The notes under the pieces: model-generated
What the model was told of the DNA's origin: nothing
Seen by the model: the letters and a program-made list of their open reading frames with translations, nothing else
Databases searched by the model: none
Virus record (IMG/VR): IMGVR_UViG_3300029288_000175
Location: 222-64,221 of that record
Direction: 5' to 3' (one strand)
DNA length: 64,000 bases
Origin: a virus
Lineage: Duplodnaviria; Caudoviricetes
Position numbers and translations under genes: made by a program
Shown: positions 41,969 to 63,700 of the stretch, piece after piece
Numbering within the stretch: position 1 is the first letter of the stretch
Layout: each line of letters starts with the position of its first letter

Positions 41969-42957
41969 TGGTCACCTCCGCCAAACATGGCGCGCTCGAA
42001 GGCGCGAGAAATCCGCGCGTCCACTTCGCCGCGCCCGCTCACCAGGATGGTGAACACCTCAGCCTCCCACTCCTGCGAGTTGTCGCGTGCTCGTGCTGTG
42101 GGTGCGGCACCCTGATAGGCTGGCCTCAGACTGCCCGACCCAAATTCATCACGCAATGCACGCGTGAAGGGGCCGTCCGAGGAGTCCGCCTGTTGGCCGT
42201 ACTTGAAACCCCACTGGTGACCCATCTCGTGCAGCGTCGTCGCCTCGTACAGGTCCTCGAAACGGTACAGACTGTGTTCCTGCGCCGTAGCGCTGGTGTA
42301 GTCGTCGTGCACGGCCATGGCTCTGGCCCGCTCAGCATACTGCAACGACTCGGCGGCCAACGTATCGGCGGCCTTGATGTAGGCCCTCTGCTCTGACTCC
42401 GAGCCCTCACCCTGCCTGAACCGCATGTGGGCCACCATCGTGGCGGCTTCCTCCGCCTTGGCCTCCACTTCAGCAATGCGCTCGTCCCACGGCGTCTGAG
42501 CCCCTATGAACACCGCCCCGTCCTGACGATTGGCTCCACCGTTGTTCTTCACGTTGCCGAACCTGATGGAGGTGACGTTATCCAGCCCGTACTCGGAGAT
42601 GACATACTTAGCCGTTCCCAACGCCCGCTCTGCGTCATCGACGGTGCCGCCATCCAACTTGAACTCATCGCCGATATCAACTTGCACAGGGCCAGCGCCG
42701 AGGTCACGCGTGCACGTGTCACACGACCTCTCGGCGTCCCGATGGAACAGGTCCGCCCGCTCGGTGCCACCGGTACTGCCACCCGCGTCGCTGAACCGCC
42801 CAGCCTCATCGCGCGGGTGCAAGTCAGGGTCCCAGTCCGCCTCGGCATACCCTGCCGAGGCTGTAAACACACCACTTTTAGGTTCCAGCGCTATCAGCTC
42901 ATTTAGCCACTCAGCTCTCTTGTCCATAGTACCTCTGAGCGAACTCGTGAGCGCCAT
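41965..42957 (-). CDS. HPR-repeat protein with zincin-like metallopeptidase domain
   Basis: WDPDLHPRDEAGRF repeat; TLHEMGHQWG (HExxH) and downstream EWEAE. Confidence 0.7.
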   Translation of the reverse strand: MALTSSLRGTMDKRAEWLNELIALEPKSGVFTASAGYAEADWDPDLHPRDEAGRFSDAGGSTGGTERADLFHRDAERSCDTCTRDLGAGPVQVDIGDEFKLDGGTVDDAERALGTAKYVISEYGLDNVTSIRFGNVKNNGGANRQDGAVFIGAQTPWDERIAEVEAKAEEAATMVAHMRFRQGEGSESEQRAYIKAADTLAAESLQYAERARAMAVHDDYTSATAQEHSLYRFEDLYEATTLHEMGHQWGFKYGQQADSSDGPFTRALRDEFGSGSLRPAYQGAAPTARARDNSQEWEAEVFTILVSGRGEVDARISRAFERAMFGGGDQ

Positions 42958-45900
42958 CGGCCGTGAACATGTAATCGTTCATCCAGGACTGCTCGTACAC
43001 TCGCGTCATGCCCAACTTCTCGTAGAATCCCACGGCATCCGGGTCAGCGTCTAGCGTAACCCCTCGGCCTTCAGCTCCTGCTATGCGGCATATGTAGGCC
43101 ATCATCGCTGTGCCCTGGCCCGGTTGACTGCGTGTGCTGGCGAGCGCTCGCACTTCCAGGTCGTTGCCCTTGATGCGCACGGAAGCCATGGCCTCCAGTT
43201 GGCCACTGTTACCAGGCTGCCGTAACCCGTATGCCTGGTACTTGTCTGGGTCGTTGCGGGTATCCCCCATGATCAGCCACGCTATCTGGGAAGCCATGCC
43301 ACTTTCGCCAAACCCCCCCAGTTCAGCAGCAGACACACGGTCTAGACGCGCCACCTCCAGGCCAGTACCGATATCAGTCCCCAGCACACGGTGCCCTTGG
43401 CCCTTGATCGGTTTCGACGTATCATCTACACCCGGTCCGCCTCCAGCATCGCTAAACCGCCCCGCCTCATCGCGCGGGTGTAGGTCGGGATCCCAACCAT
43501 CTTCCGTCAGTATCCCAAGTTCCTTGGCCGTATCAGCATAGGCATCGGAGTATGCAATCGTCACCGCAATGCCGCGCGCCTGTAGCGTCTTCGCTAGGGC
43601 CTCGGTCTTCTGTACGTAGTACTGCCTGTCGTCCTCGTACTCCCCGTAGCCTCCTTCCATGACCATGGCCACGCCGGTGATCGCGTTTGGTGTCAGACTG
43701 AGTCCTGTATAGCGCACCTCGCGCTCCCACTGCTCGTTACTGGCCATGGGATACTGCACCGCTTCCCAGTCACCGTTGAGTTGGCCCCGATCAAATGCCA
43801 ACACCGCCACACCGCTATCCCCGCCGAACGTGCTGGCGACGCGAGGCGATATCGTCAGACCTACCGTTGACTCTAACTGCCCACGAGTGCGTTCACCTGT
43901 GACCCAACCAGCCCCGTATAGCCGTCCGTCCTGGTCTATCTGACTCAGCACCTGCGGGAGGTCCCGCAACCCTACACCACGATACAGGGTATCAGCATCC
44001 GCTGCGGCCGTGTTGAACGTTGCCTGCCACCGCTCATGCTCCTCTGGCGAACGTGCGGCGTCACCCTCTGGCACCCCCCGCGGGTAACCAGGGAGGCCAG
44101 GTTCAGGGCACGCCGCCTGTCGGGAGGATGTGCGCGTGATCGCCTGCTTGGTGGCGCCAGCGCGCATCCCTTGGCCACCGGTACCACCACCCGCATCCGT
44201 GAACCTACCCGCCTCGTCGCGCGGCTGGTCGTCCGAGTACTCGGCATACCCCGCGTCCGCCATCTCGTCACCGGGGCCACCACGGTGCCCGATCCACCCA
44301 TCCGCCTGGTTCGCCGGCACTTCCCTACGACGCAGTTCGCAGCGGCAATTGCCACCACAGCTACATTCCTCAGTCGGCAGTGGCAGGTCACCGGAATGTT
44401 GCCAGCCACGAGCGTGGTAGCCCAGGCAATTGTGCACAACAAACCCGTTGGCGATATAATGATGAGCGTCCGCCACTTCGAGATTGTATACAGGAGTTGC
44501 CTCGCCATGGCTTGTGTACGTTGCGGAGTCAACTGCAAGACCTTGTTCTGTAGGCATTGCGGTAAGGCCCATGATCTTTGTGCGTGTGGCGCCGTCAAGT
44601 TGCGCAAAGTCACTCTGTGTCCTGCATGCCGGCCTAAACAGGCTAAACCAACATGCGAACAATGCGGCCGTCCTGTCTACAACAAACATTCCCGGCTCTG
44701 TCGCACATGTTATGGTTACCGTAATTGGACAGAGGTTGAGGACATGTTTCTGCGGCACGAATATGCGGCACATGGCGCCGCGTACTGCGCTGATCATCTT
44801 GACCGTTCGGTCGAGAAGGTGCGAAGCCGTGCCTCGCGCCTTCGCATTGCCGTTGTTCCTGACACTTATGACCGTCTTGTCCACGGTGGCGCTTCCCGCG
44901 CTAACAAGGGACGCAAGTTCTCTGCCGAGACGCGACAGGCGATGCGCGAACGGGCATTGCTTCGACGTGACGAATATGCTGGTTACCTTCTGAAGGGTCG
45001 CCTCGTATGCCAAGTTCAACGCCGCAGCAAGGCCGAACAACGGCTGTGCGACATGCTCGACACGATGACTGTCCCCTACGTTTCCCAGTGCGTCGTCAAC
45101 CAGAAGTTTATCTGCGACGTTGTCGTAGGCAACCTGGTCATTGAGGTTGACGGTGACTACTGGCATGGGCACCCGCGTTTCGAGCCGCTCGACGCGCGTC
45201 AACTTGCACAACACAAACGTGACGCCAGCAAGACGGCCTACTTGACCGCGTGCGGATACGTCGTCGAGCGCATCTGGGAGAGCGACCTGACCGTGGAACG
45301 AGTCCGCAGTGTCCTTACTCAGCACAACTTGCTGGCCGGTGGCGAGTAGATGTGCTGGCCACCATTCACCACTTGGCAAGAGGAACGGGTGGTTACCTGT
45401 GCAGGTGACCGCAAAAGAATCGCTCTCAACGCGCCATAACTCAGTTTCCAATCGGTGCATAGTGTCTATCACGGGCCTAGGCCCCATCGTCGTTATGGCC
45501 ATATCCCCGACACGCACATCTTGAATTGGCGCCCACCTTTTCGTCAGCCGAATTAGCGTATCGGCAGGGAAACACTCGGGGCAGTGCTTGTACGGTTCTC
45601 CCAGGTCGCGGATTTCGATGGTGACGTTCCCCTCAGCCGCTGCGGGGAGACGCGCACGCTCCACCTGGTAGTACTCCGCTCGCGCTTCACCCACGTACAT
45701 GTCCATGCGCGCCTGGGCCTGGGCACTGGATGCCTCTCCCTTGGTCATGTCGGCGCCCAACTGCCGTAGGTGGGTGAACTGGTCCGCCAGGCGCGTGGTG
45801 ATGCCCGCACGGTCGGCGTCGGTGAGGCGATCCCAGCCGCCGGCGGCGAGGGCGGCGTTCTGCACGTACTCGCGCTGTAGCATCGAGGATGCGCGGGCGA

Positions 45901-46111
45901 ACCACGTGTTCTCGCTGATGCGCCCATCCAGCATCGCCTGCACGCCGGCACGGAGGCGCCCCTCACGTTCGGTGGTGCTGCGCTCCAACAGGTCCATGAT
46001 TCTGGTGCGCGCCACGAAGCGCCCGGTCTCGTCCGAACGGTACCGACTGGCGCTGGCATCCCACTCGTAGCCCTGGAGAACGTAGGGGCCGGCCTCGACG
46101 AGAACGTTCAT
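42911..46111 (-). CDS. MuF-like head morphogenesis protein containing an intein, with C-terminal ART-like and GNAT domains
   Basis: Y+RS.ETGRFV, GG...T..D, HCPE/C...PLP..EC.C..NCRC; intein; LYRG..LTISPRVA..F..EREV; GQGTAMM..AVGFYEKLGM. Confidence 0.85.
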   Translation of the reverse strand: MNVLVEAGPYVLQGYEWDASASRYRSDETGRFVARTRIMDLLERSTTEREGRLRAGVQAMLDGRISENTWFARASSMLQREYVQNAALAAGGWDRLTDADRAGITTRLADQFTHLRQLGADMTKGEASSAQAQARMDMYVGEARAEYYQVERARLPAAAEGNVTIEIRDLGEPYKHCPECFPADTLIRLTKRWAPIQDVRVGDMAITTMGPRPVIDTMHRLETELWRVESDSFAVTCTGNHPFLLPSGEWWPAHLLATGQQVVLSKDTADSFHGQVALPDALDDVSARGQVGRLAGVTFVLCKLTRVERLETRVPMPVVTVNLNDQVAYDNVADKLLVDDALGNVGDSHRVEHVAQPLFGLAAALNLAYEATLQKVTSIFVTSKQCPFAHRLSRLGRELASLVSAGSATVDKTVISVRNNGNAKARGTASHLLDRTVKMISAVRGAMCRIFVPQKHVLNLCPITVTITCATEPGMFVVDRTAALFACWFSLFRPACRTQSDFAQLDGATRTKIMGLTAMPTEQGLAVDSATYTSHGEATPVYNLEVADAHHYIANGFVVHNCLGYHARGWQHSGDLPLPTEECSCGGNCRCELRRREVPANQADGWIGHRGGPGDEMADAGYAEYSDDQPRDEAGRFTDAGGGTGGQGMRAGATKQAITRTSSRQAACPEPGLPGYPRGVPEGDAARSPEEHERWQATFNTAAADADTLYRGVGLRDLPQVLSQIDQDGRLYGAGWVTGERTRGQLESTVGLTISPRVASTFGGDSGVAVLAFDRGQLNGDWEAVQYPMASNEQWEREVRYTGLSLTPNAITGVAMVMEGGYGEYEDDRQYYVQKTEALAKTLQARGIAVTIAYSDAYADTAKELGILTEDGWDPDLHPRDEAGRFSDAGGGPGVDDTSKPIKGQGHRVLGTDIGTGLEVARLDRVSAAELGGFGESGMASQIAWLIMGDTRNDPDKYQAYGLRQPGNSGQLEAMASVRIKGNDLEVRALASTRSQPGQGTAMMAYICRIAGAEGRGVTLDADPDAVGFYEKLGMTRVYEQSWMNDYMFTADGAHEFAQRYYGQES
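44432..44496 (+). promoter_or_regulatory. putative promoter and RBS of the antisense endonuclease
   Basis: GTGCAC-17bp-TATAAT (44455-44460); AGGAG 44492-44496; ATG 44507. Confidence 0.6.
44507..45349 (+). CDS. Zn-finger/NUMOD3/DUF559(Vsr-like) putative homing endonuclease, antisense within the intein
   Basis: Multiple CxxC, WTEVED.FL helical repeat, NKGRKFSAETRQAMRE, CDVVVGNLVIEVDGDYWHG..RDASK..YL..CGY.V.RIWE. Confidence 0.88.
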   Translation: MACVRCGVNCKTLFCRHCGKAHDLCACGAVKLRKVTLCPACRPKQAKPTCEQCGRPVYNKHSRLCRTCYGYRNWTEVEDMFLRHEYAAHGAAYCADHLDRSVEKVRSRASRLRIAVVPDTYDRLVHGGASRANKGRKFSAETRQAMRERALLRRDEYAGYLLKGRLVCQVQRRSKAEQRLCDMLDTMTVPYVSQCVVNQKFICDVVVGNLVIEVDGDYWHGHPRFEPLDARQLAQHKRDASKTAYLTACGYVVERIWESDLTVERVRSVLTQHNLLAGGE

Positions 46112-46383
46112 GGCGCCGCCTTCACCCGCGCGTCCAGCAGGCGCTTGTACCTAGCGGGCACCCAGTCAGCGGCAAACCATTCGACACGTGCCGCCTGCAC
46201 TGCTGCTGCGTCCACTCGGGCCATCGCCGCTATGTCGTCGTCGGTCAACTGGTACGTGGCCGGGTCCGCGTCCTCTGGCACCAGCGCCAGCAGGCGCGCC
46301 ACCCACTCCTCGGCGTCCATCGCGTCGTCGCCCAGGCGCACGAGGGCATCCACCTGGCGCCGGCCCCACTCCTCTCTGTTCAC
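46108..46383 (-). CDS. hypothetical protein
   Basis: ATGA overlap with MuF. Confidence 0.6.
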   Translation of the reverse strand: MNREEWGRRQVDALVRLGDDAMDAEEWVARLLALVPEDADPATYQLTDDDIAAMARVDAAAVQAARVEWFAADWVPARYKRLLDARVKAAP

Positions 46384-46390
46384 CGCCGCC

Positions 46391-46603
46391 TCACAGGTCC
46401 ACGTCGTGACTGCGCTTCACGGCCGCATGCAGGTCGCGGATGGTCTTGCCGACCGCGTCCAGTTGCTCGCACAGAGTGAGGACGTCGTCGGCATGGGAAC
46501 CATGCAACTGGCCCTTGGTTCCCCGCAAGCTGTCCATGCAGAGACTCAGGCCCAACAGTGCCACCAGTCTGTTGTGCTCGGTCAACACCAGCGGCAACGG
46601 CAT
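46391..46603 (-). CDS. hypothetical protein
   Basis: GAGGGG RBS. Confidence 0.55.
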   Translation of the reverse strand: MPLPLVLTEHNRLVALLGLSLCMDSLRGTKGQLHGSHADDVLTLCEQLDAVGKTIRDLHAAVKRSHDVDL

Positions 46604-46607
46604 CTGC

Positions 46608-49538
46608 TCACCCCCTCATCAGCACGCGCGAGGCGGCTGCCAGCATGGCCGACAACTCCTCTGGACTCAGGTGACCTAACTCTGCCAGGCCAACCCGCGC
46701 CTCTTCCACCGACCGCGCAGGTGGCTCCTTGTCGGCGTCTGGCTCCTGCGGTGGCACCTCATCAGTTTGTGCAGACGCCTGCCTTTCCTCGCCATCCTGG
46801 CCCGGTGCCTCGCCCTTGGCGATCTGCTGCGCCAGCCGTCTGTTCTCCTCGGCCTGCTGCTTCGCGGCGTCCAGCGCCTGCACCACCATGTCAGCACTGA
46901 TCACGTCCTCTACGTCCTGCACCCCCACCGCCTGGAGCGACGCCTGCACGATGGAGGCGATGATCGGCGGGATGGACGCGTCGGGCAGCATGGCAGCCTG
47001 CATCAGCGGCAACACGACCTGCGCCGTCACGTTGACGATGTTCTGCACCTGCGCCGCCGTGTCCGTCTCAAGCAACTTGTCAAGGTTGACCGTCACGTTC
47101 TTGGCGTCTATGCGGTCTTTCCCGTACCTGTTCGCCATGTCAAACACGATCCGGGCCACGTCACGCCACACCGAGGCCCAGAACGACTGGTACGCGCCGA
47201 ATGACAGCTGGATCGGACGCTCCATCGCCGTGGCAGTGTTGCCGGCGATCAGCGGGGCCCCATGGCGCCGCGTGACGAACATGCCGTCTGGTGGGACCTC
47301 AAAGCACCACACCAGGCCGCGATATTCCTCGACGGTCACGTTGATGTGCCGCCGCAGATGCAAACGTTCGCGTCGGTTGCGGTACAACCGCCAACCATCG
47401 CGTTGCATCCACCGGCTGGCTGCATCTCCGTGATGTGGCCCGGCCGATCGTATCTGCGTCAGTTTGCCCCACTCGCCATGATGCAGCATGAGACGTTGCA
47501 CGTCGTCCAACAGCAGGCGAGAGGTGCTGTCAAACCCGCCAACCTGTGTCACGGGGTGGCCGTCCATGCGCTCATGCCCATCACCCGCCATGTACGCGTC
47601 CAACAGTAGCGTTGCCTGTTCATGGGGCAGTGCGAACACGAACGCCGGCAGGCGCCGATTCCACTGGTAGTGGCCTACGTTATCACGCAACCACGCATGC
47701 AAACTGGCATCGCTGCACCGCCATCGCCAGTACGCGCCCTTCATCGGTTTGCGACTAAATGCGAATGGGAGGCGCTCCAGACACGCATCTATGGCCGCGA
47801 CTTCGGCGGTCGCATTCATGCGCTGGCAGAGACTCACCACATGGCGATCCTCCAGGCTGCCCTCAGCGATCCACCAACCCAAAAACGTCAACCAGGCGTC
47901 AGCATCCAGTGGCCGTTCCACGGGCTCGTTGCCCAGGTAGAACTGTTCCAGTCGCTCATGGGACGTGATGCGTGCCATTGACGGTAAACCGAACGCTACC
48001 GGGAGGGCATCAGCACGCACGACGGTAAACGGTCGCACGTGTTGCCGATTCTCGTGTGTCTCGTCGCTGACAAGCATCCGATGGTTGGGCGTCACCAGGG
48101 CGTCGACCTGCGCACCACACAACCGCACCATCGGTCCCGCATACGCGTATACGTGTAGTGCAGACGGTTCGCGGTATGTCAGAACCCCATCACCTGCCGA
48201 GTAACTCGCTATGCGCTGCCCCGGCACCCACTGATGCCATGCACACCAACCATCCTCGGTCAACACCTCGGTCTGGTTGTCATAACACGCGAGTCGATAT
48301 GCATCACCGATGCCTGCGTAGTGCGGGAAGATACGCGCGCTGAGGAGCGCGTACCACGCCAGCGACTCCCCGTCCGCCTTGGCGTCAGAGGCGCCGGTGT
48401 CGAGGTTGAGCTGCCGCAGGCTCTGCGCCTCGTTGCCGAGGTACGTTGACCCCGACACCGGCGGTGGGTTCTGCTCCCAGTCGCCGGTGCTGCCGGCACG
48501 TTGGAGCGTCGAGGCGATCTGTGCCTGCACCGCGTCCACACCACGAGAGCCCGACTTCGTCTTCAGTTCGTTCACGAACATGGACCGGGCCTCAGCGACG
48601 TTGGCCCGGTTGACGCGGAACTGCTCGTGCTCCTTCACCCAGCCGTGGCCGGTGGTCATCAGTGGCCAACCGCGGCCATTCTCGTCCGCCTTGTGCGCCA
48701 CGCACACGACGCAGACGAACGTCATCGACGACGCCTCGTCTGCCCTGATAGCGCCCTGTGGCAACAGGTCACGCGCCTCGATCTTCTTCCCATCGAGATC
48801 CCACCCCAGCCAGTTGGGATCGTTGCCCCTGGTATTGCCGAGCGGCGCCTCACCACCGGCGCGCGGACCGCCGCTCAGGAACGCCAGGTAGTCCGGGTAG
48901 TAGGCATCGTGGAGCTGGCCGTACGGGTGGCCAGGGTCAACCTCGGACCACTGGCGATGCCACCAGACTGTCGTGGTCGCGTCACCCGGCGCCATGATCC
49001 GGTCGACAAACTCCAGACTGTTCAGCGACCGGATGGTGCATTTGCCGGTCGCCTTGGACGCGTACATGGCGAGGAACCGCTCCCCGTCGTGCAGCACGTT
49101 GTTGCTGAGGTCCTGTAGGTAGCGGGCACCCAACACCATGGCGTTCCGGTCAGCCGCCCAGAACTCATTCCAGACCTCGGCCGCCGTCTCGTCGTCTGCC
49201 ACCACGTCGACGTTCTGGCCGTGGCCATACGCGGTCCACAGCCACATGGCATACTCGGCAAGGGGGCTGGATCGTACCAGGTAGCGCGACTCGAAAACGG
49301 CACGGCGCCGGTCTGCCTCGTTAGGCTCGCCGACGCCGAGTTGTAGGTACCCCACCTCGCGGATCAGGTTGGTCAACGTGTGGGAGTCCAGCTCCATCAG
49401 GTCACGCGCGAGGTCTCGCGGCTGGTACGAGTAGGGGCCGCGTACGTATCCCTCGCGCATGATGACGAACGCCTCGCGTATCGCCTGCACCTCCGGTCCC
49501 AGGAGGAACCCGGCCAGGCGTTGCCGTATGCTAGGCAT
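46608..49538 (-). CDS. portal protein containing an intein
   Basis: Follows terminase block; DGE.FL, AH+...RG.PL portal motifs; GAGGAG RBS. Confidence 0.85.
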   Translation of the reverse strand: MPSIRQRLAGFLLGPEVQAIREAFVIMREGYVRGPYSYQPRDLARDLMELDSHTLTNLIREVGYLQLGVGEPNEADRRRAVFESRYLVRSSPLAEYAMWLWTAYGHGQNVDVVADDETAAEVWNEFWAADRNAMVLGARYLQDLSNNVLHDGERFLAMYASKATGKCTIRSLNSLEFVDRIMAPGDATTTVWWHRQWSEVDPGHPYGQLHDAYYPDYLAFLSGGPRAGGEAPLGNTRGNDPNWLGWDLDGKKIEARDLLPQGAIRADEASSMTFVCVVCVAHKADENGRGWPLMTTGHGWVKEHEQFRVNRANVAEARSMFVNELKTKSGSRGVDAVQAQIASTLQRAGSTGDWEQNPPPVSGSTYLGNEAQSLRQLNLDTGASDAKADGESLAWYALLSARIFPHYAGIGDAYRLACYDNQTEVLTEDGWCAWHQWVPGQRIASYSAGDGVLTYREPSALHVYAYAGPMVRLCGAQVDALVTPNHRMLVSDETHENRQHVRPFTVVRADALPVAFGLPSMARITSHERLEQFYLGNEPVERPLDADAWLTFLGWWIAEGSLEDRHVVSLCQRMNATAEVAAIDACLERLPFAFSRKPMKGAYWRWRCSDASLHAWLRDNVGHYQWNRRLPAFVFALPHEQATLLLDAYMAGDGHERMDGHPVTQVGGFDSTSRLLLDDVQRLMLHHGEWGKLTQIRSAGPHHGDAASRWMQRDGWRLYRNRRERLHLRRHINVTVEEYRGLVWCFEVPPDGMFVTRRHGAPLIAGNTATAMERPIQLSFGAYQSFWASVWRDVARIVFDMANRYGKDRIDAKNVTVNLDKLLETDTAAQVQNIVNVTAQVVLPLMQAAMLPDASIPPIIASIVQASLQAVGVQDVEDVISADMVVQALDAAKQQAEENRRLAQQIAKGEAPGQDGEERQASAQTDEVPPQEPDADKEPPARSVEEARVGLAELGHLSPEELSAMLAAASRVLMRG
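47238..48287 (-). mobile_element. intein (350 aa) with in-frame LAGLIDADG endonuclease
   Basis: CYDNQTEVLT, TPNHRM, FLGWWIAEGS, LLDAYMAGDG, VWCFEVPPDGMFVTRRHGAPLIAGN, +1 Thr. Confidence 0.92.
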
Positions 49539-49882
49539 CTGCCCCACTCCTCAACTAGCACCTCCCCCGTCGCTACCATCATACACTCAGGCAAGGACGC
49601 AACGCGAACGCGGGGCAGGGTTCACCCCTTGCATGAGGCGGCGCAAGACGAACGGCGGAGCTGCCAGGTCCGGTACTGGAGGGACTACAAGCCACCAATT
49701 GCGCGGCGCCACCGCGTCGCTCTCAACGATCCTGATCGTCATGCCACACACGGTGATGTGGCGCTCACGGATTGCATTTCGCTCGTTCGCGCTGGCAGGA
49801 TCGAGGTTGATCACAGCAACCCTCCTAGAACTGCACCGGCTGGCACCGCGCCAGGCCGGTATGCCGAACAGTCCGGACGACG

Positions 49883-50332
49883 TCACAGCAGCCCCCCTAT
49901 CGGCGCGCCGGCCATCCGCTCGGCGCACTCGGTTGACACCACGTCCATGGTCACCCCGGCCAGGTCGCACCAGAACTCCAGCGTGCGGTCCTGCCCGCAT
50001 ATCCACGCCCACGCGTCCTCGCTGTCCGGGGTCCAGGGCGAGCGAAGCACCGCCCTGGACGACGTGTTCGGCTCCACCCACGCAATGTCGTTCAGGGTAC
50101 GCGCCAGCACCCCCAACGCGATCAGTCGCCCGGCCTCGGCATCCTCGTCGTCGGCGCCCAGGGCGTGGTAGATGACGCCCTGAGCCTCCTCGACGAGCAC
50201 CGTGACGTCACACCGACGGCCCTTGGTCGTATCGTTGATCAGGCTGAGCACGCCGATGAGGGTGCGCATGGCGCTCTCCATCACGCCAAGTCTGGCCTCA
50301 TCGGTGACGTTGATGCTCTCGTTTTGCGCCAT
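49883..50332 (-). CDS. hypothetical protein (possible late regulator-like helical protein)
   Basis: DAWAWI...F..WCDLAG pattern. Confidence 0.55.
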   Translation of the reverse strand: MAQNESINVTDEARLGVMESAMRTLIGVLSLINDTTKGRRCDVTVLVEEAQGVIYHALGADDEDAEAGRLIALGVLARTLNDIAWVEPNTSSRAVLRSPWTPDSEDAWAWICGQDRTLEFWCDLAGVTMDVVSTECAERMAGAPIGGLL

Positions 50333-50336
50333 GGCG

Positions 50337-51032: not shown

Positions 51033-51033
51033 T

Positions 51034-51521: not shown

Positions 51522-51540
51522 CGAGCACCTCCACATCCTC

Positions 51541-51568
51541 AACGTAGCACCGCCTTGCAGGCGCGCAA
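51541..51568 (-). promoter_or_regulatory. promoter with palindromic box
   Basis: TTGCGC-16bp-TACGTT with extended TG; TTGCAGGCGCGCAA 51555-51568. Confidence 0.65.
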
Positions 51569-54264: not shown

Positions 54265-54274
54265 ACTCATCGCG

Positions 54275-55183: not shown

Positions 55184-55185
55184 GG

Positions 55186-55839
55186 CTACCCCGTCCTGAA
55201 CTGCATGGCAGACAGGTTCTGCCGCCCCTCTACTGGCGGCCACCACATCGACTTGCTCTTCACGCTCACCGCTGTCAGGCCCAGTTTAGTGAAGAAGGCG
55301 TTGCGGTCCTCGACGGACCGGAAACTGACCGTGACTTTGAGCACGTCTTCCTGCGGATCATACTCCGGCATCCCCACCCACTCAGCAGCCTCGTTGAAAC
55401 CGCTGATCTCGTCGCCAGTCCTGGTCACCATCACCAGGGCGGCCAGCATCGCATCGTCGTACCCCGTGCCACGCAAGCCTCCTGGGTTCTTGTCCTTGAC
55501 CTCCTTCAACAGTTCGGATAGCAGCCTGTCGTCTATCTCGGCTAGGTGCCTCACCTCGTTGTCGCCGGTCAGCACGGCCAGGGCCTGCGGAGAATCGGCA
55601 TCCACAGGCAGGCGTACGACCGGCACGCGCTGTACCCCAATCCGGCGCAGCGCCGCCACGACGCCGTGCCCGGCCAGTATTGTGCCGTCGCGCGCTACCA
55701 CCACGTTCCGGTACAGGCCGTATTTCTGGATACTGGCCGTGATGTGCTCAAGCTGGTCGTCAGGGTGCGCCCGGTAGTTGCGGGGATGAGGCCGCAGGTC
55801 CTCTATGCCAACCATCTCAACAGCTAACTCGTCTTCCAT
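55186..55839 (-). CDS. ParB N-terminal domain protein (DNA-modification-associated type)
   Basis: L.PHPRNYR.H....I..SI..YG...VV..DGTILAGHG...A...G...VPV..DN. Confidence 0.85.
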   Translation of the reverse strand: MEDELAVEMVGIEDLRPHPRNYRAHPDDQLEHITASIQKYGLYRNVVVARDGTILAGHGVVAALRRIGVQRVPVVRLPVDADSPQALAVLTGDNEVRHLAEIDDRLLSELLKEVKDKNPGGLRGTGYDDAMLAALVMVTRTGDEISGFNEAAEWVGMPEYDPQEDVLKVTVSFRSVEDRNAFFTKLGLTAVSVKSKSMWWPPVEGRQNLSAMQFRTG

Positions 55840-55854
55840 CACATCCCTCCTGCT

Positions 55855-55902
55855 CCAATCATAGCACGCAGTTGCACCCGTGCAAGGCTGTGCTATGATT
55901 GG
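55855..55902. promoter_or_regulatory. symmetric divergent promoter pair sharing one palindromic box
   Basis: CCAATCATAGCAC...TTGCACCCGTGCAA...GTGCTATGATTGG; TTGCAC-16-TATGAT on both strands. Confidence 0.85.
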
Positions 55903-55919
55903 GACAGGAGGGCCTTCGG

Positions 55920-56126
55920 ATGGCAGCTTGGCAGGTAGTGATGCCGCAGGTGGTAGCGACGCTCGTTGAGCGGTTCGGTAGCGCGCGCGCCGCGGCCGAG
56001 GCGTTGGACGTGGACCCGGCGCAGTTGTCGCGCTGGAAGGGCGGCCAGGAGCCGCGCGTCGCGGTGCTCCAGCGCGTCGTCGCCGGCTGCCCCGACGTCA
56101 GACCGTTAATCAGGAGCATGTTCTAG
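55920..56126 (+). CDS. Cro/Xre-like HTH transcriptional regulator
   Basis: SARAAAEALDVDPAQLSRWKGG.EP; AGGAGGG RBS. Confidence 0.8.
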   Translation: MAAWQVVMPQVVATLVERFGSARAAAEALDVDPAQLSRWKGGQEPRVAVLQRVVAGCPDVRPLIRSMF

Positions 56127-56173
56127 CGTTCTATCCCACCCGCCTGGGCAACGAGTGGTAGACGGAGAGGATC

Positions 56174-56359
56174 GTGCCAGAGGACCATGAACAACTTAAT
56201 ATGACCACCGACAATCGCCCTCGAGCGGGGGCGCCGATCCGATGGCAGGTTGCCCACCCTGCCTACATGGTCCCGGATCAGCGCCGCCTCGCGAGGGCGA
56301 TTTCGCGTCCCCAGGAGGGCAACAGTGTCAGGGTATCCTCGTTCCCCGCGCCACCGTGA
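56174..56359 (+). CDS. hypothetical small protein
   Basis: GGAGAGG RBS. Confidence 0.4.
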   Translation: MPEDHEQLNMTTDNRPRAGAPIRWQVAHPAYMVPDQRRLARAISRPQEGNSVRVSSFPAPP

Positions 56360-56714
56360 CGGCGCATCACACCGGTGCTGGTACTGCGGCGACGTGCTCC
56401 AGTCAGGCACCACGACCATCGACCACGTGATCCCCAAGAGTCGCGGGGGCCTCGGCCTCCAGGGCAACACCGTGTATGCCTGCCGGCGCTGCAACGCCAC
56501 CAAGGACGACCTGCTGCTGGACGAGTTCCGCGAGTGGATAACCGACGGCGTTGCAGCGCCGTTGCGGGACGCCATGGAGCACCTGGACGTCGTCCGCCGC
56601 CTGCTGCCACCTGAGACGGCGCGGACCGTCACAGCGCGGATCAACGAGGCCATGGCGGAGTTGTACGGGGCCCCGATCGTGTTCTACGGCGAGCGAAACG
56701 CGAGACGGAGGTAG
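56325..56714 (+). CDS. HNH endonuclease
   Basis: CWYCG...TIDHVIPKSRGG....N...ACRRCN..K; AGGAGG before GTG 56325. Confidence 0.85.
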   Translation: MSGYPRSPRHRDGASHRCWYCGDVLQSGTTTIDHVIPKSRGGLGLQGNTVYACRRCNATKDDLLLDEFREWITDGVAAPLRDAMEHLDVVRRLLPPETARTVTARINEAMAELYGAPIVFYGERNARRR

Positions 56715-56718
56715 AGGC

Positions 56719-57624
56719 ATGAGCATCAGGGCCATGCAGGCCGTGTTCGACTCCAGTCAGCAGAAGGCCGGCCACCGGTTGGTGTTGCTCACCATCGCCA
56801 ACTGCGCCAACGACGACGGCGTGGCGTGGCCGTCCCTAGACCACCTGGCCGCCATGTGCAACGCCACGCGCGGGTACGTCAAGGACGCCATCAAGGCGCT
56901 GTGCAGCGCCGGCGAGTTGGAGGTGATCACCCGCACGGCCGTGTCCGGTGCCAGCCGCAGCAACTACTACCACATCCTCGTCCCCGGAGCCGCCAGCTCC
57001 ACCTACGACCCGGCGGACTACACCTCACCGGCCACCGCATCCCCTGCCACTCCCGCCCAGACACGGCCACCTGCTCAGACCCCTCCCCCGGCCGCGACTC
57101 AGCCTGCCGACTCGCTCCGGGAGGGGGGTGCAGGGACACCCCTGGGAGGGGGGTGCAGGGACACCCCTGGGAGGGGGGTGCAGGGACACCCCGGAGGGGG
57201 GTGCAGGGACACCCCATATCCCACATTAGATCCAAGAGAGAGAGCCACGCCCCTATCGGGGCGTGCGCCGGCGCCCCAGTCCCCACCGGCGTATGCCTGC
57301 CAGCAATGCCAGAGGGTGTTCCGCACGCGGGGGGCGCTCACGTTGCACCTGCGCCGGGACCACGATGGCGGGCACGACAGCGACGCCGTGACGGCGTACA
57401 GGCGCCACACCAAATGCGCGCCCAACCAGGAGCAACGAGCCGCGATCACGGCAGCCGTTGCCGACCTGCCCCTGTGGGAGGAGGTCCTCACCGAGTGGAT
57501 GGTGCACCGGTGGCGGCCCACTAACGTCGCCAACATCATCGACCGCTACCAGCGGCTGGCCAAGGAGCGCGCCACGAGCATCTCGCCCACGGCGGTGACG
57601 GCCGACATGATCATACGCCGGTGA
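56719..57624 (+). CDS. phage replication initiator (N-terminal wHTH, C2H2 finger, DnaD-like C-terminus)
   Basis: LVLLTIANCANDDGVAWPSLDHLA; CQQCQRVF....L..H...H; internal iterons. Confidence 0.8.
   Translation: MSIRAMQAVFDSSQQKAGHRLVLLTIANCANDDGVAWPSLDHLAAMCNATRGYVKDAIKALCSAGELEVITRTAVSGASRSNYYHILVPGAASSTYDPADYTSPATASPATPAQTRPPAQTPPPAATQPADSLREGGAGTPLGGGCRDTPGRGVQGHPGGGCRDTPYPTLDPRERATPLSGRAPAPQSPPAYACQQCQRVFRTRGALTLHLRRDHDGGHDSDAVTAYRRHTKCAPNQEQRAAITAAVADLPLWEEVLTEWMVHRWRPTNVANIIDRYQRLAKERATSISPTAVTADMIIRR
57121..57215 (+). repeat. four 22-bp iterons, putative replication origin
   Basis: GAGGGGGGTGCAGGGACACCCC at 57121, 57146, 57171 and 57194. Confidence 0.85.
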
Positions 57625-57667
57625 TAGTGCACGCGCGTGCACGACTTGGGGACACGGGAGAACAACG

Positions 57668-58090
57668 ATGCGTGAAGCCGATGTGCTGGACCACATATGG
57701 GCACGGCCGCCATATCGCGAGATACGGTGGATAGAGCGGCGTGATGATGCCATCGTTGATGGCGGCGTGATCCGCCACTGCTTGGGAACCATGAGGTTTT
57801 ATACCGCGTGCGGGCTGGTCCTGCGTCAAGCGCCATTCCCGGACGGGCCAGTCCTCGACGACATGTTCTGGTACCCGAAAAACGGTCTGTCAACCTCGTT
57901 CGCGTGCCCTCGCGGCTACCAGAACATGGTGTACCACTGCTACGTGGCGCCAGATGGGACTGCGGAGGTGACATACAGTCGTTCCACCCGGTGGCCGATG
58001 GCTCCGGTGACGCGGTGGTGGACAGATGATGACTGGTACGCGCGGTTCTGCCCTGACGTTTGCGCGCGTGCGTGCACGACCAGGAGGTAA
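57668..58090 (+). CDS. hypothetical protein
   Basis: GGGAGA RBS. Confidence 0.6.
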   Translation: MREADVLDHIWARPPYREIRWIERRDDAIVDGGVIRHCLGTMRFYTACGLVLRQAPFPDGPVLDDMFWYPKNGLSTSFACPRGYQNMVYHCYVAPDGTAEVTYSRSTRWPMAPVTRWWTDDDWYARFCPDVCARACTTRR

Positions 58091-58093
58091 CAC

Positions 58094-58744
58094 GTGGACC
58101 AGAACGTGAGTGACGCCACGGTGCGTGACTGCGCCGTGTCCGAGTTGGTCGTCGCCGTAGCGGCCATCGACCGCGCCCTGGACACAGAGGCGATGGAGCA
58201 GCACCTCAAGGGCGTGCCTGATGACGACCTGCCGGTGCTGTACGAGACGTTCCGCTCCGTCCATGAGCGGTCCTGGCAGTGCCAGTGCCTCGTGGTGACC
58301 GAGATGATGCGCCGGGTGCGGTGGGGGGAGGGGCGGGCTGAGTCGGTACGTGAGGCGCTGGGCATGGGCAGCGTCAGGACGGTGCAGTACCGCGCCGCCG
58401 TTGGCGCGATGCTCACCGATCCGGAGGTGCAGTCCGCCGTGCCCGTGCTCGGTGGCGAGACGTGGTTTCGCATCGCCACCGACTCCCCCGACCCTAAGGC
58501 CGCCATCGTCATGGCAGCCGACCGTAAGGCCGCCGACCCCGGCTACAGCACGCGCCAGTTCGCCGCCGAGGTGCGCGGCCAGGACCCACCGACCATCGAA
58601 CGGATCGTGCTGGTGGGGGAGGATACGGGAGCCAATGTGCGGCTAGCGGAGCGGTTGGCCCGCAGCTACAACGTGCGCGTGGAGATACGCGAGGTGCTGA
58701 GCGCACCACCTCTAGGAGCGTATGGGCCGGTGGCGCCGGCCTAG
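58094..58744 (+). CDS. hypothetical phage protein
   Basis: AGGAGG RBS. Confidence 0.7.
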   Translation: MDQNVSDATVRDCAVSELVVAVAAIDRALDTEAMEQHLKGVPDDDLPVLYETFRSVHERSWQCQCLVVTEMMRRVRWGEGRAESVREALGMGSVRTVQYRAAVGAMLTDPEVQSAVPVLGGETWFRIATDSPDPKAAIVMAADRKAADPGYSTRQFAAEVRGQDPPTIERIVLVGEDTGANVRLAERLARSYNVRVEIREVLSAPPLGAYGPVAPA

Positions 58745-58897
58745 TTGTGCTTGTCCACACGGCGTGCTACGCTGGTAGCACACGTTTCCATCCACACAGG
58801 CGGCCAGGACCCCGCGCCAACACCGGCGCAACCTGGCCGCCGACCTGTTTTCCACCACCGCGCCGAAACTCGCCCCCATTTTGGTCCCATCACCCTA

Positions 58898-58926
58898 TTG
58901 CGCGCGCGCAACGGATGTTGTACAAT
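58898..58926 (+). promoter_or_regulatory. boxed early promoter
   Basis: TTGCGC-17bp-TACAAT; TTGCGCGCGCGCAA 58898-58911. Confidence 0.75.
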
Positions 58927-58952
58927 GGACTCAGAACGATGGAGGTGCGGTG

Positions 58953-59582
58953 ATGAACCAGGGGAAGCTGAGCGTGAAGAAGGGTGACACGGTGATCTGG
59001 GACAGGTTTGGCGACTGCGGCGTCTATCGCGGCACCGCGCACCTGAGCGCACAGAAGATCGCCATGGTCAGGAAGGACGGCATCATCGTCCTGGAGAACG
59101 GAGGATGGTTCACGGTCCAGGGGTTCGCTCGCGGTAAGGCGAGCGGCCGGATCATGGAGGCCACGCCGGAACTCCTGGCCGAGGCCGAGCGGCAAGCCGC
59201 CGAGAGACTGGAGGAGCGCCGCCGTCTGGAGAAGCAGAATGACGAGGTGCGAGCGCAGATTGCGAATGCGGCGGCCGAGCGCCACGAGGAAGCCCGCCGT
59301 ATCTTCGGGGAGCAGGTAGAGGCGGCCACCGAACCCATGCCCGGTATCCATCAGACGGTCATCACCTGGCCCGACGGCACGAAGCGGTTCCTGGTAGCAA
59401 CCGTGCACCAGGTGCGGCACTTCAACTATGGCGAGTGCCGCGAGTACACCGCCGTGTCGGTGGGCGTGACGCTGTTCCAGGAGACGGAGTACCGCTGGGC
59501 ACGCGTGGACATGGAGCGTGAGGCGGATACCTGGCAGGAGGCGGTCTACGAGGCGCTGGGCGGCGAACTGCCCAACAAGTGA
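58953..59582 (+). CDS. hypothetical early protein
   Basis: GGAGG RBS. Confidence 0.7.
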   Translation: MNQGKLSVKKGDTVIWDRFGDCGVYRGTAHLSAQKIAMVRKDGIIVLENGGWFTVQGFARGKASGRIMEATPELLAEAERQAAERLEERRRLEKQNDEVRAQIANAAAERHEEARRIFGEQVEAATEPMPGIHQTVITWPDGTKRFLVATVHQVRHFNYGECREYTAVSVGVTLFQETEYRWARVDMEREADTWQEAVYEALGGELPNK

Positions 59583-59587
59583 TCGTA

Positions 59588-59653
59588 GCCGAAAGCCCCC
59601 CAGCGCGGGGGGTTCCGCCGGGGCTGGCCGCCCGACGCTGATGAGGCAGGCTG
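59588..59653 (+). ncRNA. type II hammerhead ribozyme
   Basis: GCC-GAAA-stem III-UUC-stem I-CUGAUGA-GGC with possible loop I/3' pseudoknot. Confidence 0.8.
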
Positions 59654-59665
59654 AGGAGAGGTGCA

Positions 59666-60256
59666 GTGATGGGTGTGAAGATGACGAGGAATGATGCGGG
59701 GGAGATCGAGCTGTCTACGCCGTTTCACCCGAGCGTCCCGCCAGCCGCGCGTGATCTGGGAGGGAAGTGGATCGCATCGCGCGAGGTATGGACGTTCGAC
59801 CCACGTGACGAGTCGAACGTACGCGAGATGGTGCGGCGCATCTTCGGCACTGACGGCAGCGATCAGCCGCGGCTGGTCACGGTCATGCACCGCGTGACCT
59901 CTCGGGAGAGTCAGAACTCGACGCTCTGGTTCTGCGGGCGCGAGGTGGCGCAGCGCCCCGTGCGCGATGCGCGGGTGCGGCTCGGTACCGGGGTCCGGTA
60001 CGCTGGCGATGCTCAGTTCCCCGGTTCTGGTGGCAGCGCGAAGTACCCTGCGCTGAACGCCACTGGTCTGGTGCTCGAGATCCGCGACGTGCCAGTGGAG
60101 TTGGCAGTCGCAGCAGTGAACGACGACACGTGGATCGTTGATGATGTGGGCCCGGTCGAGCCCGTGGGGGAGTCCGACGACCCGCTCGCCGGCACCGACG
60201 ACGCTGTGCTCGTGGCGGAGATGGAGCGTCGCGGGTACGTCGTAAGCCGCAGGTGA
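59666..60256 (+). CDS. hypothetical early protein (HARP-like N-terminus)
   Basis: TPFHP....ARDLGGKW....WTF; GAGGAG RBS. Confidence 0.7.
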   Translation: MMGVKMTRNDAGEIELSTPFHPSVPPAARDLGGKWIASREVWTFDPRDESNVREMVRRIFGTDGSDQPRLVTVMHRVTSRESQNSTLWFCGREVAQRPVRDARVRLGTGVRYAGDAQFPGSGGSAKYPALNATGLVLEIRDVPVELAVAAVNDDTWIVDDVGPVEPVGESDDPLAGTDDAVLVAEMERRGYVVSRR

Positions 60257-60325
60257 GCCGAAACGCCCGCGTGTAGGCGCGGGCATTCGCCGGGGCTGGC
60301 CGCCCGGCGCTGACGAGGCAGGCCA
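60257..60325 (+). ncRNA. type II hammerhead ribozyme (second copy)
   Basis: GCC-GAAA-stem III-AUU-7-bp stem I-CUGACGA-GGC; UGGCC/GGCCA pseudoknot; C-A mismatch next to the core. Confidence 0.65.
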
Positions 60326-60339
60326 CTGGGGAGGGCACG

Positions 60340-60534
60340 ATGGCAACAGTGACAGAGCAGCGCACCACGCTTCGCGTCATCTGCGCCTGGTGCGGGCGCG
60401 TGCTCGGCACCAAGGACGGCAAGGGCATCAGTGGCGACAGCCATACCTGCTGCCACGAGTGCCTCACCAAGATGCTCGCCGGCGTGTGCGAAGTGCCGGA
60501 CACGGACGATGATGCGGAGGTGGCGTCATGCTGA
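60340..60534 (+). CDS. small zinc-finger protein
   Basis: VICAWCGR.LG.KDG...SH.CC.EC. Confidence 0.75.
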   Translation: MATVTEQRTTLRVICAWCGRVLGTKDGKGISGDSHTCCHECLTKMLAGVCEVPDTDDDAEVASC

Positions 60535-60761
60535 CCGCAGAGCAGGTACGTGAGAAGCGCGCTGAGGCGCAGGGAGAGGTGGTACGGTACGCGGCAATCC
60601 GCGCCGATGCCATGAGACGCTGGAGCGAGGCACTGCAACGCCTAGACCACGACCAGATGCGTACAGCGAACCGTGAGATCGAGGACGCCGGGCGCACGAT
60701 GATGGCGTGGCGGTGGACCAGCGACGCTTTCACAGTGGTACTGGACGGGGAGCCGGAGTGA
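60528..60761 (+). CDS. hypothetical helical protein
   Basis: GGAGG RBS; stop abuts helicase ATG. Confidence 0.65.
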   Translation: MLTAEQVREKRAEAQGEVVRYAAIRADAMRRWSEALQRLDHDQMRTANREIEDAGRTMMAWRWTSDAFTVVLDGEPE

Positions 60762-63700
60762 TGGGCGCTGAATCACGGTTGCTGCTGAGTCGGGCGCTCC
60801 GTCACCTGGCGAGCCGGTGTGACGGGGCGGTCTCGCACGACGATCAGGGATTCGCCGCCCCCGATGTGAGCGACGGCCACCGCTTGGCGCGTGCCGACCA
60901 CGAGTCGTGGACGCTCGCAGAGGCCCAGCGGGCCTGGGAGATTGTCCGGCGCTACTCCGGCCAGCTCGCAGAGGTGGGCATCTCCCCGGCAACGATCCCA
61001 GCCCCGATACCGGAGACGCAGCAGGTCGCCGCCCCAGCCGCCACCAACGGCCACGCCCGCAGGGCCACCCGCGTGGTGACCGTCGAGCAGGGGGTGGTGG
61101 TGATCGCGTTCCCCTACGACGCCGACCTCGTGGCGGCCGTGAAGAGCATCCCCGGCCGGCGGTTCGATTCGGGCCACAAGCACTGGACGGCACCCCTGTC
61201 GTCGCTGGCGGCGGTGCGCGCGTTTGCCGAGAAGCACAGGTTCGTCGTGACCGAGTCGGCCGCGAACGCCCCGGTCACCGAGGCAGCGGCCGCGCCGGCC
61301 CCGCCTAGCAGGACCGTGCGGCTGGACGGCGACCGCCTGGTGGTGCGGTTCGACTATGACGCCGACCTGGTGGCACAGGTGCGGGAGTTGGCCGGCGCCC
61401 GTTGGGACAAGACCGGGCGCCACTGGAGCGTTCCCGTGTCTAGCGCGAGCGTGGCCGCGCTGCGGCGGCTCGGCTTCGTGCCCACGGACCCGAAGGCCCT
61501 CGACGCGGCCGTGGACGGCCTCGCGCGCAACGAGGAGGCCAGCCGCGCTGCCACGTCCACCCTGGAGGTCCCCGGCCTCGGCGGCACGCTGCGGCCGTTC
61601 CAGGCGGCCGGGGTGGCGTACGCTATGAAGCAACGACGATTGTTCATAGCTGATGAGATGGGAACCGGGAAAACTGTGCAGGCGCTGGCAACCGTCCAGG
61701 CCACCAACGCATACCCCGCCCTGGTCGTCTGCCCCGCCTCGCTCAAGCTCAACTGGCAGCGTGAGGCGCGCAAGTGGCTACCCGGCCGGTCGGTCGCCGT
61801 CCTGAACGGGACGATGGACCTGACCGCCGACGTGTGCATCATCAACTACGACGTGCTGGCGCGGCGGTTGGACGCACTGAAGGCGGTCCGCTGGCAGGCG
61901 GTGGTCCTGGACGAGTCACACTACATCAAGAGCGCCAAGGCTCAGCGAACGAAGGCGGCGCAGGAACTGTGCCAGGCGGCACCGCTCCGGCTCCTACTCT
62001 CCGGCACGCCGCTGCTGAACCGGCCCGTCGAGCTGGTGACGCAGTTGCAGGCGCTGGGGCGCCTGGACGAGTTCGGCGGCTCCTGGAAGTTCATCAGCCG
62101 CTACTGTGGGGCCACGCGGACGAAGTACGGCGTTGACATGAGCGGCGCCACCAACCTGGACGAGCTGCACACCCTGCTGCGCCAGCGGTGCCTTCGGGGC
62201 GAAGTTGTGGTAGAATGCGAACATGGACCACTAACTATTGCGGAGATTGTTGAAAGCGAGTTGCCGGTTTCCGTATGGTCGGTGGCAAAGGATGGATGCA
62301 TTGAACTCAGACGAACGGTTGGTTACAGCAAGCGCCATCATCAAGGCGCGTTGGTGCGAGTACGAACAGAGGATGGAAGGTCGTTTGATTGCACCCCCGA
62401 TCATCGGGTTTGGACATCGTGTGGCTACAAACGGGCCGCCGCCCTTACTGGTAGCGATTACGTGTTGGTACTGTGGCAAACGAGTTGTCCGCCGGTGGCA
62501 CGGATTGCAAACCGCCCTAAAGTACTGCTCTCAGAAGTGCGCGGGCAAAGCGGCGGCACAGGACCATGTAAGGGGCCAGCGTATGATGGAAACCAGAGCA
62601 CGCAATCGTGGCCCGGATGTTACGAAGACATGCGAGTGGTGTGGCAAGACGTTCACCGGGCGCAATGTGAAGCAACTGCGGCAACGACGCTTTTGCAGTC
62701 TGTCCTGCTCAAATGCGTGGAAACAAACACTGCCGCATGCACAGAAGACGTTAGCAGCGATGTGGGCGGCACCCAGTCACAAAGGCAAGCGATACCCGGC
62801 AATCAGCGCGGCGTTGAAAGGACGCCGCCGCAGTCAGGAATCAATAGAAAAGGGGCGCGTTACCGCACGAGCAAGGCATCGGCTTCCGGGCCGCAGCGAT
62901 CGCATATCACCCTGTGCACGAAAACTATGCGCGGCGCTAGGGTGGCAGGAACAGTGGTTAGAGTACATGTTGGAGATCAAAAAGCCCCAAGGCAAGTTCA
63001 TAACCGGGGTTCGGAACTTCCTGTATCTAGACTTAGCAAACCCGCAATACAAGTTAGCGGTAGAAGTAGACGGTACTACTCATCGTCTTCTCAGGCAACA
63101 GCAACTAGATGCATGGAAGACGAGAGTACTTCTGTCGTTAGGGTGGCGAGTATTGAGGTACTCCAATCAGCAGGTGACGGACGAGTTGACGGCAGTAGTT
63201 GTGGAGGTGCAGTCGTTTATGACATCGAGGTAGAAGGGAACCACAACTTCTTTGCCAACGGAGTGCTTGTTTCTAACTGCTACGTGCGCCGCACGAAGGC
63301 GCAGGTCCTCGCTGAACTGCCGGCGAAGCAGCGCGTGGCGGTTCCTCTCGAACTCAGCAACGAGGCTGAGTACCGCCGGGCAGAGCGCGACGTGGCCGGC
63401 TACCTGCGTGACCGGGCCGCGGAGCACGCCCGCGAGGATGCCGTGCGCGACGGCGCGGACCTGTTCGCGGCTGAGGCTCGCGCCCGCGCCGCCGGGAACC
63501 GCGCGAGCAGCGCGGCGGAGACGGCGCAGCAGTTGGTGCGGATCGAGGCCCTGAAACGCCTGGCGGCCGAGGGGAAACTGAGGGCAGCGATCGGGTGGGC
63601 GCAGGACTTCCTCGACGCGGCCGAGGGCGAGAAACTCGTGCTGTTCGCCCACCACGTTGACGTACAGCAGCGCCTGTACGACGCGTTCCCCGGCGCGGCG

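Follow-up and report, generated by a model that had tools for sequence, protein, structure and literature searches.

Putative homing endonuclease genes lying antisense and in frame +1 within two inteins of one Caudoviricetes genome

Several inteins are known whose endonuclease is not read in the frame of the host protein. Inteins with an antisense LAGLIDADG gene have been known since 1998, as cited in later work, and the out-of-frame endonuclease of the dnaX intein was first noted by Gorbalenya in 1998, as cited in bioRxiv 10.64898/2026.09.14.751524; in that preprint Phillips, DeSimone and Gogarten describe a cyanobacterial dnaX intein with an out-of-frame LAGLIDADG in a +2 open reading frame (ORF) that is under selection. 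Gosselin, Arsenault and Gogarten (bioRxiv 10.1101/2025.01.02.630785) report that actinophage inteins can carry LAGLIDADG or VSR-like nucleases antisense and endonuclease VII-like ones in frame 3, with minor capsid proteins among the hosts; they propose invasion by free-standing nucleases and note the EDxHD link. In the "fractured genes" of Dassa et al. 2009 (PMC2677866), found mostly in phages, split inteins flank a free-standing Vsr-like or GIY-YIG nuclease gene. Here we analyse 64,000 bases (the window; G+C content (GC) 65-70%) of IMG/VR virus record IMGVR_UViG_3300029288_000175 (64,221 bp, estimated completeness 79%). The window holds three complete inteins, one in each of three long genes for a head protein, the portal and an SNF2 helicase, and a nuclease gene overlaps two of them, antisense in the head-protein gene and in frame +1 in the helicase gene.

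In both of these elements the stretch from block B to block F of the intein is taken up by a nuclease ORF of another frame or strand, and the intein frame across it is open and without a recognisable domain, as it is in the actinophage inteins. The antisense element is a further case of the kind described there. The helicase element differs in having a VSR-like nuclease at +1, and its family extends to Vibrio and Pseudomonas phages and over a GC range of 0.31-0.66; the main text of the actinophage preprint lists no helicase host and no same-strand VSR-like case. The dnaX intein resembles the window in its same-strand overlapping ORF in the linker, with the nuclease frame under purifying selection and the intein frame relaxed, a pattern that matches the substitution counts for Vibrio phages K391 and 1.088.O given below; it differs in that its nuclease is a LAGLIDADG at +2 in a bacterial chromosome gene, whereas the window has, in a phage genome, Vsr/EDxHD-like nucleases placed antisense or at +1. 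Fractured genes have the same nuclease superfamily in the same intein slot, with the 3' end of the nuclease gene overlapping the downstream intein part, and relatives of both window nucleases have that layout (loci L002-L004 and L062). In the window, by contrast, both inteins are contiguous, the host gene is unsplit and the nuclease is overlapped over its whole length, so that neither is a split intein. Structurally, both predicted nuclease cores are closest to I-Bth0305I (2011, PMC3239194; PDB 3r3p), which differs in being encoded by a group I intron and shares only ~15-27% identity with the window proteins, to which N-terminal zinc ribbons are added. The ShiLan element, as outlined in PMC11855218, likewise hides an out-of-frame nuclease in an insert that keeps the host frame open; there the nuclease is HNH and the insert, in a phage methylase, is not a recognised intein.

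No description of a same-strand +1 Vsr-like nuclease in helicase inteins was found in the searchable open-access literature, and it is this layout itself that was not found described. The original prediction, made from the letters of the window, had presented out-of-frame nucleases in inteins as a new candidate class; the reports above forestall that claim, the general idea being already in preprints, and the gain here is in breadth and detail rather than in concept. What sets this genome apart is only that it combines three layouts and that its SNF2 copy lies off-site. The two elements and their hosts are the following.

42911..46111, minus strand: head-protein precursor, 1066 amino acids (aa), host of intein 1; the ORF just downstream of the portal gene
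44429..45574, minus strand: intein 1, 382 aa (head-protein aa 180-561), splicing blocks intact
44507..45349, plus strand: antisense gene for a 280-aa nuclease, with its stop, lying entirely between blocks F and B of intein 1
44433..44460, plus strand: promoter-like TGCACA-16-TATAAT, antisense to the block G codons of intein 1 (H-Y-I ... V-H-N)
60707..64000, plus strand, continuing past the window end: SNF2-family helicase precursor (by Pfam), host of intein 3
62189..63277, plus strand: intein 3, 363 aa (helicase aa 495-857), middle open and featureless
62292 or 62373 (ATG) to 63233, plus strand: +1 nuclease gene, 313 or 286 aa, ending inside block F of intein 3
62250..62279, plus strand: weak promoter-like TTGAAA-18-TATGGT in the N-terminal splicing codons of intein 3, upstream of ATG 62292

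We consider it probable that each element is a composite of a class 1 intein and a separately transcribed and translated homing endonuclease gene. The intein would do no more than excise itself from an essential phage protein by splicing. The nuclease would be of a free-standing zinc-ribbon/NUMOD-like/Vsr-EDxHD type placed in the usual B-F endonuclease slot, antisense in the head protein and +1 in the helicase. Selection on the linker would read the nuclease frame, and the intein frame would be a spacer, kept free of stops so that the host protein is still made and spliced. The nuclease would cut intein-less alleles in co-infecting relatives, and repair would then copy intein and nuclease together. 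The mechanism put forward in the original prediction has good support from comparison with relatives. The helicase element would come from a large, old, frame-locked family whose normal place is the Walker-B/motif II site DE|CH, the window copy being at a different SNF2 site and the most divergent found.

All three inteins carry the class 1 residues (Cys, Ser or Thr at position 1, block B TxxH, a terminal Asn, and Cys, Ser or Thr at +1) in one open host frame and are predicted to splice by the class 1 route; the three layouts that had been claimed for this genome (in-frame, antisense and +1) are all present with their splicing blocks. Intein 1 has blocks CFPADTLI, TGNHPF and VYNLEV..VVHN|C, lies at CPE|C within a CxxC motif of its host, and has a middle of ~290 open codons with no domain of its own. 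The blocks of intein 3 are CLRGEVVV, CTPDHRVW and VYDIEV..LVSN|C. Pfam Intein_splicing matches intein 3 with E-value (E) 2e-11 and 44.3 bits (cut-off 35.8), making it the sole intein of the three above the cut-off; intein 1 (E 2e-5) is under it. At the penultimate position the head-protein intein has His, the portal intein Gly and the helicase intein Ser, the last being common to many members of the helicase-type family. All three inteins have a lower GC and a weaker bias in GC at third codon positions (GC3) than their exteins, intein 1 having no GC3 bias, which is consistent with recent arrival.

The program-made antisense ORF in intein 1 (44036-45349) extends beyond the intein, and the likely gene is 44507-45349; its start is most likely ATG 44507, which follows AGGAG (44492-44496) and whose Met is conserved with its closest relative, P0006. 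The product has zinc ribbons, an insert resembling a helix-turn-helix, a NUMOD-like stretch and a nuclease core of the Vsr/EDxHD type. Its Pfam DUF559 / REase_MTES_1575 match is weak (E 3e-3, 17.9 bits, under the cut-off of 20.6; 22.2 bits "with its neighbours" in a genome search). A protein search finds 28 relatives, the best with 49% identity over 98% of the query, and in an alignment of 23 sequences every invariant core residue, DGDYWHGHPRFEPL..RQ..Q..RD...YL..CGY.V.RIWE, is present in the window copy. A profile of the family matches 3hrl (E 1e-4) and 3r3p (E 0.02). The AlphaFold2 model (pLDDT, or predicted local distance difference test, 81.6) is matched by Foldseek to I-Bth0305I (3r3p, E 5e-4, TM 0.73 on the target) and Vsr (1cw0, E 6e-4). 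Because 23 relatives keep the invariant residues and the predicted fold matches I-Bth0305I and Vsr, we regard the identification as a nuclease as secure despite the weak Pfam score.

This nuclease and the intein frame face each other with their second codon positions paired, an exact register in which any TTA, CTA or TCA codon of the nuclease would put a stop into the intein frame. The gene contains none of these codons, where 3.1 are expected from extein codon usage (P 0.04), 7.6 from other intein-borne genes and 12.2 from free-standing homologues; two of the latter, L097 and L098, have 16 and 11. Synonymous permutation was dropped for this gene, whose codon pool is already without the three critical codons, and background codon usage was used instead.

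The full ORF nested in the helicase intein (62238-63233) reads in frame +1 of the helicase and intein and encodes two zinc fingers followed by a divergent middle and then a DUF559/Vsr-like core. Here the Pfam DUF559 match is strong (E 1e-10, 41.8 bits, cut-off 20.6), with FCS-type zinc fingers also found. The AlphaFold2 model has pLDDT 81.3, and a fold search with it returns 3r3p and 3hrl (DUF559-like) at probabilities of 0.99 and 1.0, with weaker E-values of 0.01-0.03. Both window nucleases retain the invariant E, D, G, H and D columns and the zinc residues, and they hold up as what they had been proposed to be, separate intact genes overlapping the B-F linker. When the codons of the +1 ORF are shuffled synonymously, the intein frame acquires 10.1 stops on average, against none observed, and 0/20,000 permutations reach zero; five related loci give the same outcome.

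Promoter elements had also been predicted in intein motif codons. Promoter-like hexamers are indeed there, as consensus matches only, and they are plausible as signals of the nested genes. The 44433-44460 site has 10/12 matches (2 sites found against 0.4 expected), comparable hexamers stand at the same place in L096 and ~10/17 antisense loci, and several loci have an extended -10 just before the start. The 62250-62279 site has 9/12 matches (1 found against 0.5 expected).

The nuclease families of the two elements are homologous and, as had been proposed, have the same domain order (hhalign probability 99.5%, E 1.6e-22), the head-protein type having an extra helix-turn-helix-like insert and an 11-residue core insert relative to the helicase type. 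Likeness between inteins 1 and 3 is limited to blocks F and G. Because the nuclease subfamilies, the inteins and the orientations differ, the two captures in this genome are, to judge from their sequences, independent events. Vsr/EDxHD nucleases with such modular zinc-ribbon DNA-binding parts could yield new site-specific nucleases.

Megablast of both window regions against 50,697 phage records gave no match, and the window virus is without a close cultured relative; a genome-contig scan with the +1 nuclease gave only zinc-finger fragments in metagenome-assembled genomes of Bacteroidales. By tblastn, the +1 nuclease finds 40 records of cultured phages, always beneath an annotated helicase-like coding sequence (CDS). 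In all five records examined it is +1 to the CDS and within an intein at DE|C...HN|CHH: Vibrio phages CP-T1 (L089, gp10), K391 (L092) and 1.088.O (L093), Corynebacterium phage phi673 (L090, gp43) and Pseudomonas phage MR14 (L091, gp44). The deposited annotations of these five contain the helicase-like CDS alone, with no row for the intein or for the nested nuclease of 215-263 aa. A protein-database search with the +1 nuclease gives a single partial match and six-frame scans give 297 relatives, so we read the single match as a gene-calling blind spot and not as rarity. Nested nucleases go unannotated, gene callers keeping only the long host ORF, and phage genomes thus under-report a common class of mobile nuclease.

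An IMG/VR scan with an alignment of the nucleases from the five phages gave 86 loci, which were classified with home-made hidden Markov models (HMMs) of the splicing domain. N- and C-terminal splicing parts flank the nuclease in 60 of them, with one open host frame, to which the nuclease is always +1; a further 20 have one splicing part and the same +1 host frame, the other part being under the HMM threshold on re-inspection. The +1 layout thus accounts for 80/86 loci, the others being three split inteins with the nuclease as a gene between the halves (L002-L004) and three without an intein, and in-frame, +2 or antisense placement of the helicase-type nuclease occurs in 0/86. Among unique nested ORFs the frame is +1 in all 52, and all stop 8-74 nt before the end of the intein. 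These inteins are nearly always inserted at the Walker-B/motif II DE|CH, in hosts that, judged by motif, are helicases, very large methylase-helicase-like proteins and clamp-loader-like LLDE|CHKLT proteins. Chance opening of frames in GC-rich DNA was rejected as an explanation, the layout persisting down to a GC of 0.31 in loci that extend up to 0.66. In the host ORFs of L116 and L134 the HMMs flag a second splicing-domain pair, without Cys at position 1 in the printed junctions; these pairs may be spurious or degenerate.

Nuclease and splicing-domain distances are correlated in this family (Mantel r 0.55, reached by 0/2000 permutations, with the shared ancestry of the phages left uncorrected), and the median identity is 35% for both. 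Because all 52 copies are +1 and these distances correlate, the +1 family looks like one old composite diversifying as a unit rather than like repeated colonisation. Within the +1 family, the recurrent colonisation that had been suggested is not supported.

Between Vibrio phages K391 and 1.088.O the helicase exteins diverge by ~20% and the intein by 5.6%. The B-F linker has 42 differences, 34 of them silent in frame +1 and 6 in the intein frame; of the 15 in blocks A-B, 13 are silent when read in the intein frame. Three pairs of antisense loci behave alike: 138-150 of their 212-227 differences are at nuclease codon position 3, and 132-143 leave the nuclease sequence unchanged, whereas 39-48 do so for the intein frame. 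These counts support selection on the nuclease frame, not the intein frame, in the linkers of relatives. As clear natural cases in which 0.8-0.9 kb code twice and the frame under selection changes within a single gene, the elements are useful for testing models of overlapping-gene evolution.

The antisense layout also recurs, and with the +1 counts above this bears out the expectation that such overlaps would be found in other genomes. P0006, the closest relative of the window's antisense nuclease (contig L096, GC 0.51), is antisense in an intein in the same head-protein context and the same register, and in a metagenome scan 16/80 loci have the nuclease nested antisense in an intein; the register is the same in each, and their GC is 0.40-0.66. 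The head-protein extein junction aligns with those of L096 and 16 other loci. The window intein lies before the second Cys of the CxxC; in L096, and in all 15 further antisense loci whose junction can be read, the intein precedes the first (HN|CDDC-like), three codons upstream. In viral contigs the head-protein type of nuclease is free-standing in 74/84 loci; the HMMs come mostly from helicase-type inteins, and counts of "no intein part" for this type are upper bounds. Some copies lie between split-intein halves, as at L062 (3-4664), and in L032 (1585-3990; a viral contig of GC 0.38), whose host has the same zinc motif, the nuclease is fused in frame in the intein, which is the canonical layout for this type. 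One nuclease superfamily is thus found free-standing, between split halves, in frame, antisense and at +1, which supports a "splicing first, nuclease later" origin of inteins.

Two observations concern other relatives of the antisense nuclease. In 24 loci (L182, L184-L187, L198, L202, L203, L206, L209 and others) no intein parts are detectable and yet the antisense frame is open in the same register over at least 80% of the nuclease match; these may be divergent inteins missed by the HMMs, truncated contigs or former nested copies. L099 (2887-4056, GC 0.63) is a free-standing relative among head genes (scaffold, capsid), with one TTA/CTA/TCA codon, an antisense frame open over 1161 nt and no visible intein blocks.

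The helicase intein of the window lies at LRQR|CYVRRTK, ~90 residues downstream of motif II, which is intact (aa 401 onwards). It is absent from 11/11 of the closest SNF2 homologues examined (29-54% identity), which read straight through, e.g. ..GS-CYVRRTK.., and two of which have Cys at the +1 position (..S-CYVRRTK..); empty target sites therefore exist. On the C side the window DNA (63278-63289) reads TGC TAC GTG CGC, and the motif II site of L119, among the nearest relatives of this intein, reads TGC CAC TAC GTG CGC. This likeness, which is anecdotal, hints at ectopic homing and may also be coincidence. A more detailed history can be offered tentatively, as a possibility that we hold to be less likely than not to be right in all its parts: the +1 zinc-ribbon/Vsr-like nuclease and its intein would be an ancient, frame-locked, overprinted element, this being the normal state of the subfamily, whose usual target is the Walker-B DE|xH in many P-loop NTPases; the window copy would have jumped to an SNF2 site with a similar C-side sequence and have a remodelled middle (DNA-recognition) region; and in the antisense element the block G/F codons would double as the nuclease promoter.

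Several observations weigh against a composite of intein and working nuclease gene. In a genome of this GC, the open frame opposite the antisense gene could arise by chance with a probability as high as 0.04 under extein codon usage. The best relatives of the window copies have 49% (antisense) and ~36% (+1) identity, and the selection was measured in related loci only. A Shine-Dalgarno-like motif precedes just 21/52 of the +1 ORFs, the promoters of both nested genes are matches to a consensus, and the Mantel correlation includes shared phage ancestry. The window +1 nuclease agrees at 28/43 well-conserved columns, where even the lowest of the other members scores 35 or more; it lacks two middle motifs, RMK..NPM and RGGNG, and is the most divergent of 42 aligned members. 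This divergence could be retargeting or partial decay. Decay would fit nested nucleases that are relics, mostly the helicase copy, the inteins having become fixed and homing having stopped with the ORFs not yet degraded, and near-identical copies were not found in the phages, viral contigs or genomes searched. Both ORFs are, however, full length and free of stops with every invariant catalytic and zinc residue, the structure models are confident in the nuclease cores, the low GC of the inteins suggests recent arrival, and the intein-free helicase relatives show that targets exist; relics are unlikely, if still the most serious of the alternatives.

Homing of the carrier intein by a composite element, as preferred here, also has to be set against expression of the nucleases for some other role, such as competition of phage against phage by cutting of rival genomes or marker exclusion. 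The free-standing majority of head-protein-type nucleases, with no intein nearby, would suit such a role, as would target sites in conserved genes of relatives. The helicase-type nuclease, on the other hand, is almost always associated with an intein (83/86 loci) and co-diversifies with the splicing domain, and in the Vibrio pair intein and nuclease have moved together relative to the exteins. We give this alternative little weight, well below that given to relics.

Ribosomal frameshifting from the helicase or intein frame, which would make the same-strand nuclease as a fusion, is very improbable. The strand, the +1 frame, a beginning of the ORF inside the splicing domain and the low frequency of Shine-Dalgarno-like motifs are in its favour, but an ATG stands right at the start of homology in 49 of the 52 unique nested ORFs, split-intein relatives carry the nuclease as a stand-alone gene, and frameshifting is inapplicable to the antisense element. 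That assembly errors put a canonical in-frame endonuclease intein out of frame is effectively refuted: nothing favours it beyond the metagenome-assembly origin of the record, it needs two compensating errors plus an intein frame open by chance (see the permutations above), the +1 layout is in 52 unique loci including finished phage genomes, and a frameshift cannot produce an antisense gene.

The third intein of the window, which has the canonical layout, and its host are given here.

46608..49547, minus strand: portal precursor, 979 aa, host of intein 2; PHROGs portal family, E 2.5e-11
47238..48287, minus strand: intein 2, 350 aa (portal aa 421-770), with an in-frame LAGLIDADG-like middle

Its blocks are CYDNQTEV, TPNH and ..IAGN|T. 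The original prediction of a canonical LAGLIDADG intein in a portal gene is borne out for the portal by the PHROGs match; the LAGLIDADG label depends on a sub-threshold Pfam match (LAGLIDADG_3, E 0.006) and two motifs picked out by eye. Searched against PDB sequences, this intein gave no match. The name MuF, given earlier to the host of intein 1, is in a similar position: the place next to the portal and the CxxC..CxC motif suggest a MuF-like protein, and PHROGs gives no such name, matching the N-extein to an unnamed family and the C-extein to "virion structural protein". The C-terminus of this head protein has a weak GNAT-like Pfam match, under the curated cut-off, and its C-extein (42911-44428, minus strand) has a GC3 of 0.67 against 0.84 in the N-extein; the C-extein may be a mosaic or cargo region. 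The helicase assignment comes from Pfam matches to SNF2-rel_dom (E 3e-29), Helicase_C and HARP. Between early genes on the plus strand lie two type II hammerhead ribozymes, at 59587-59655 and 60256-60327, with scores of 47.4 and 47.6 bits (Rfam gathering threshold 37; E ~5e-7).

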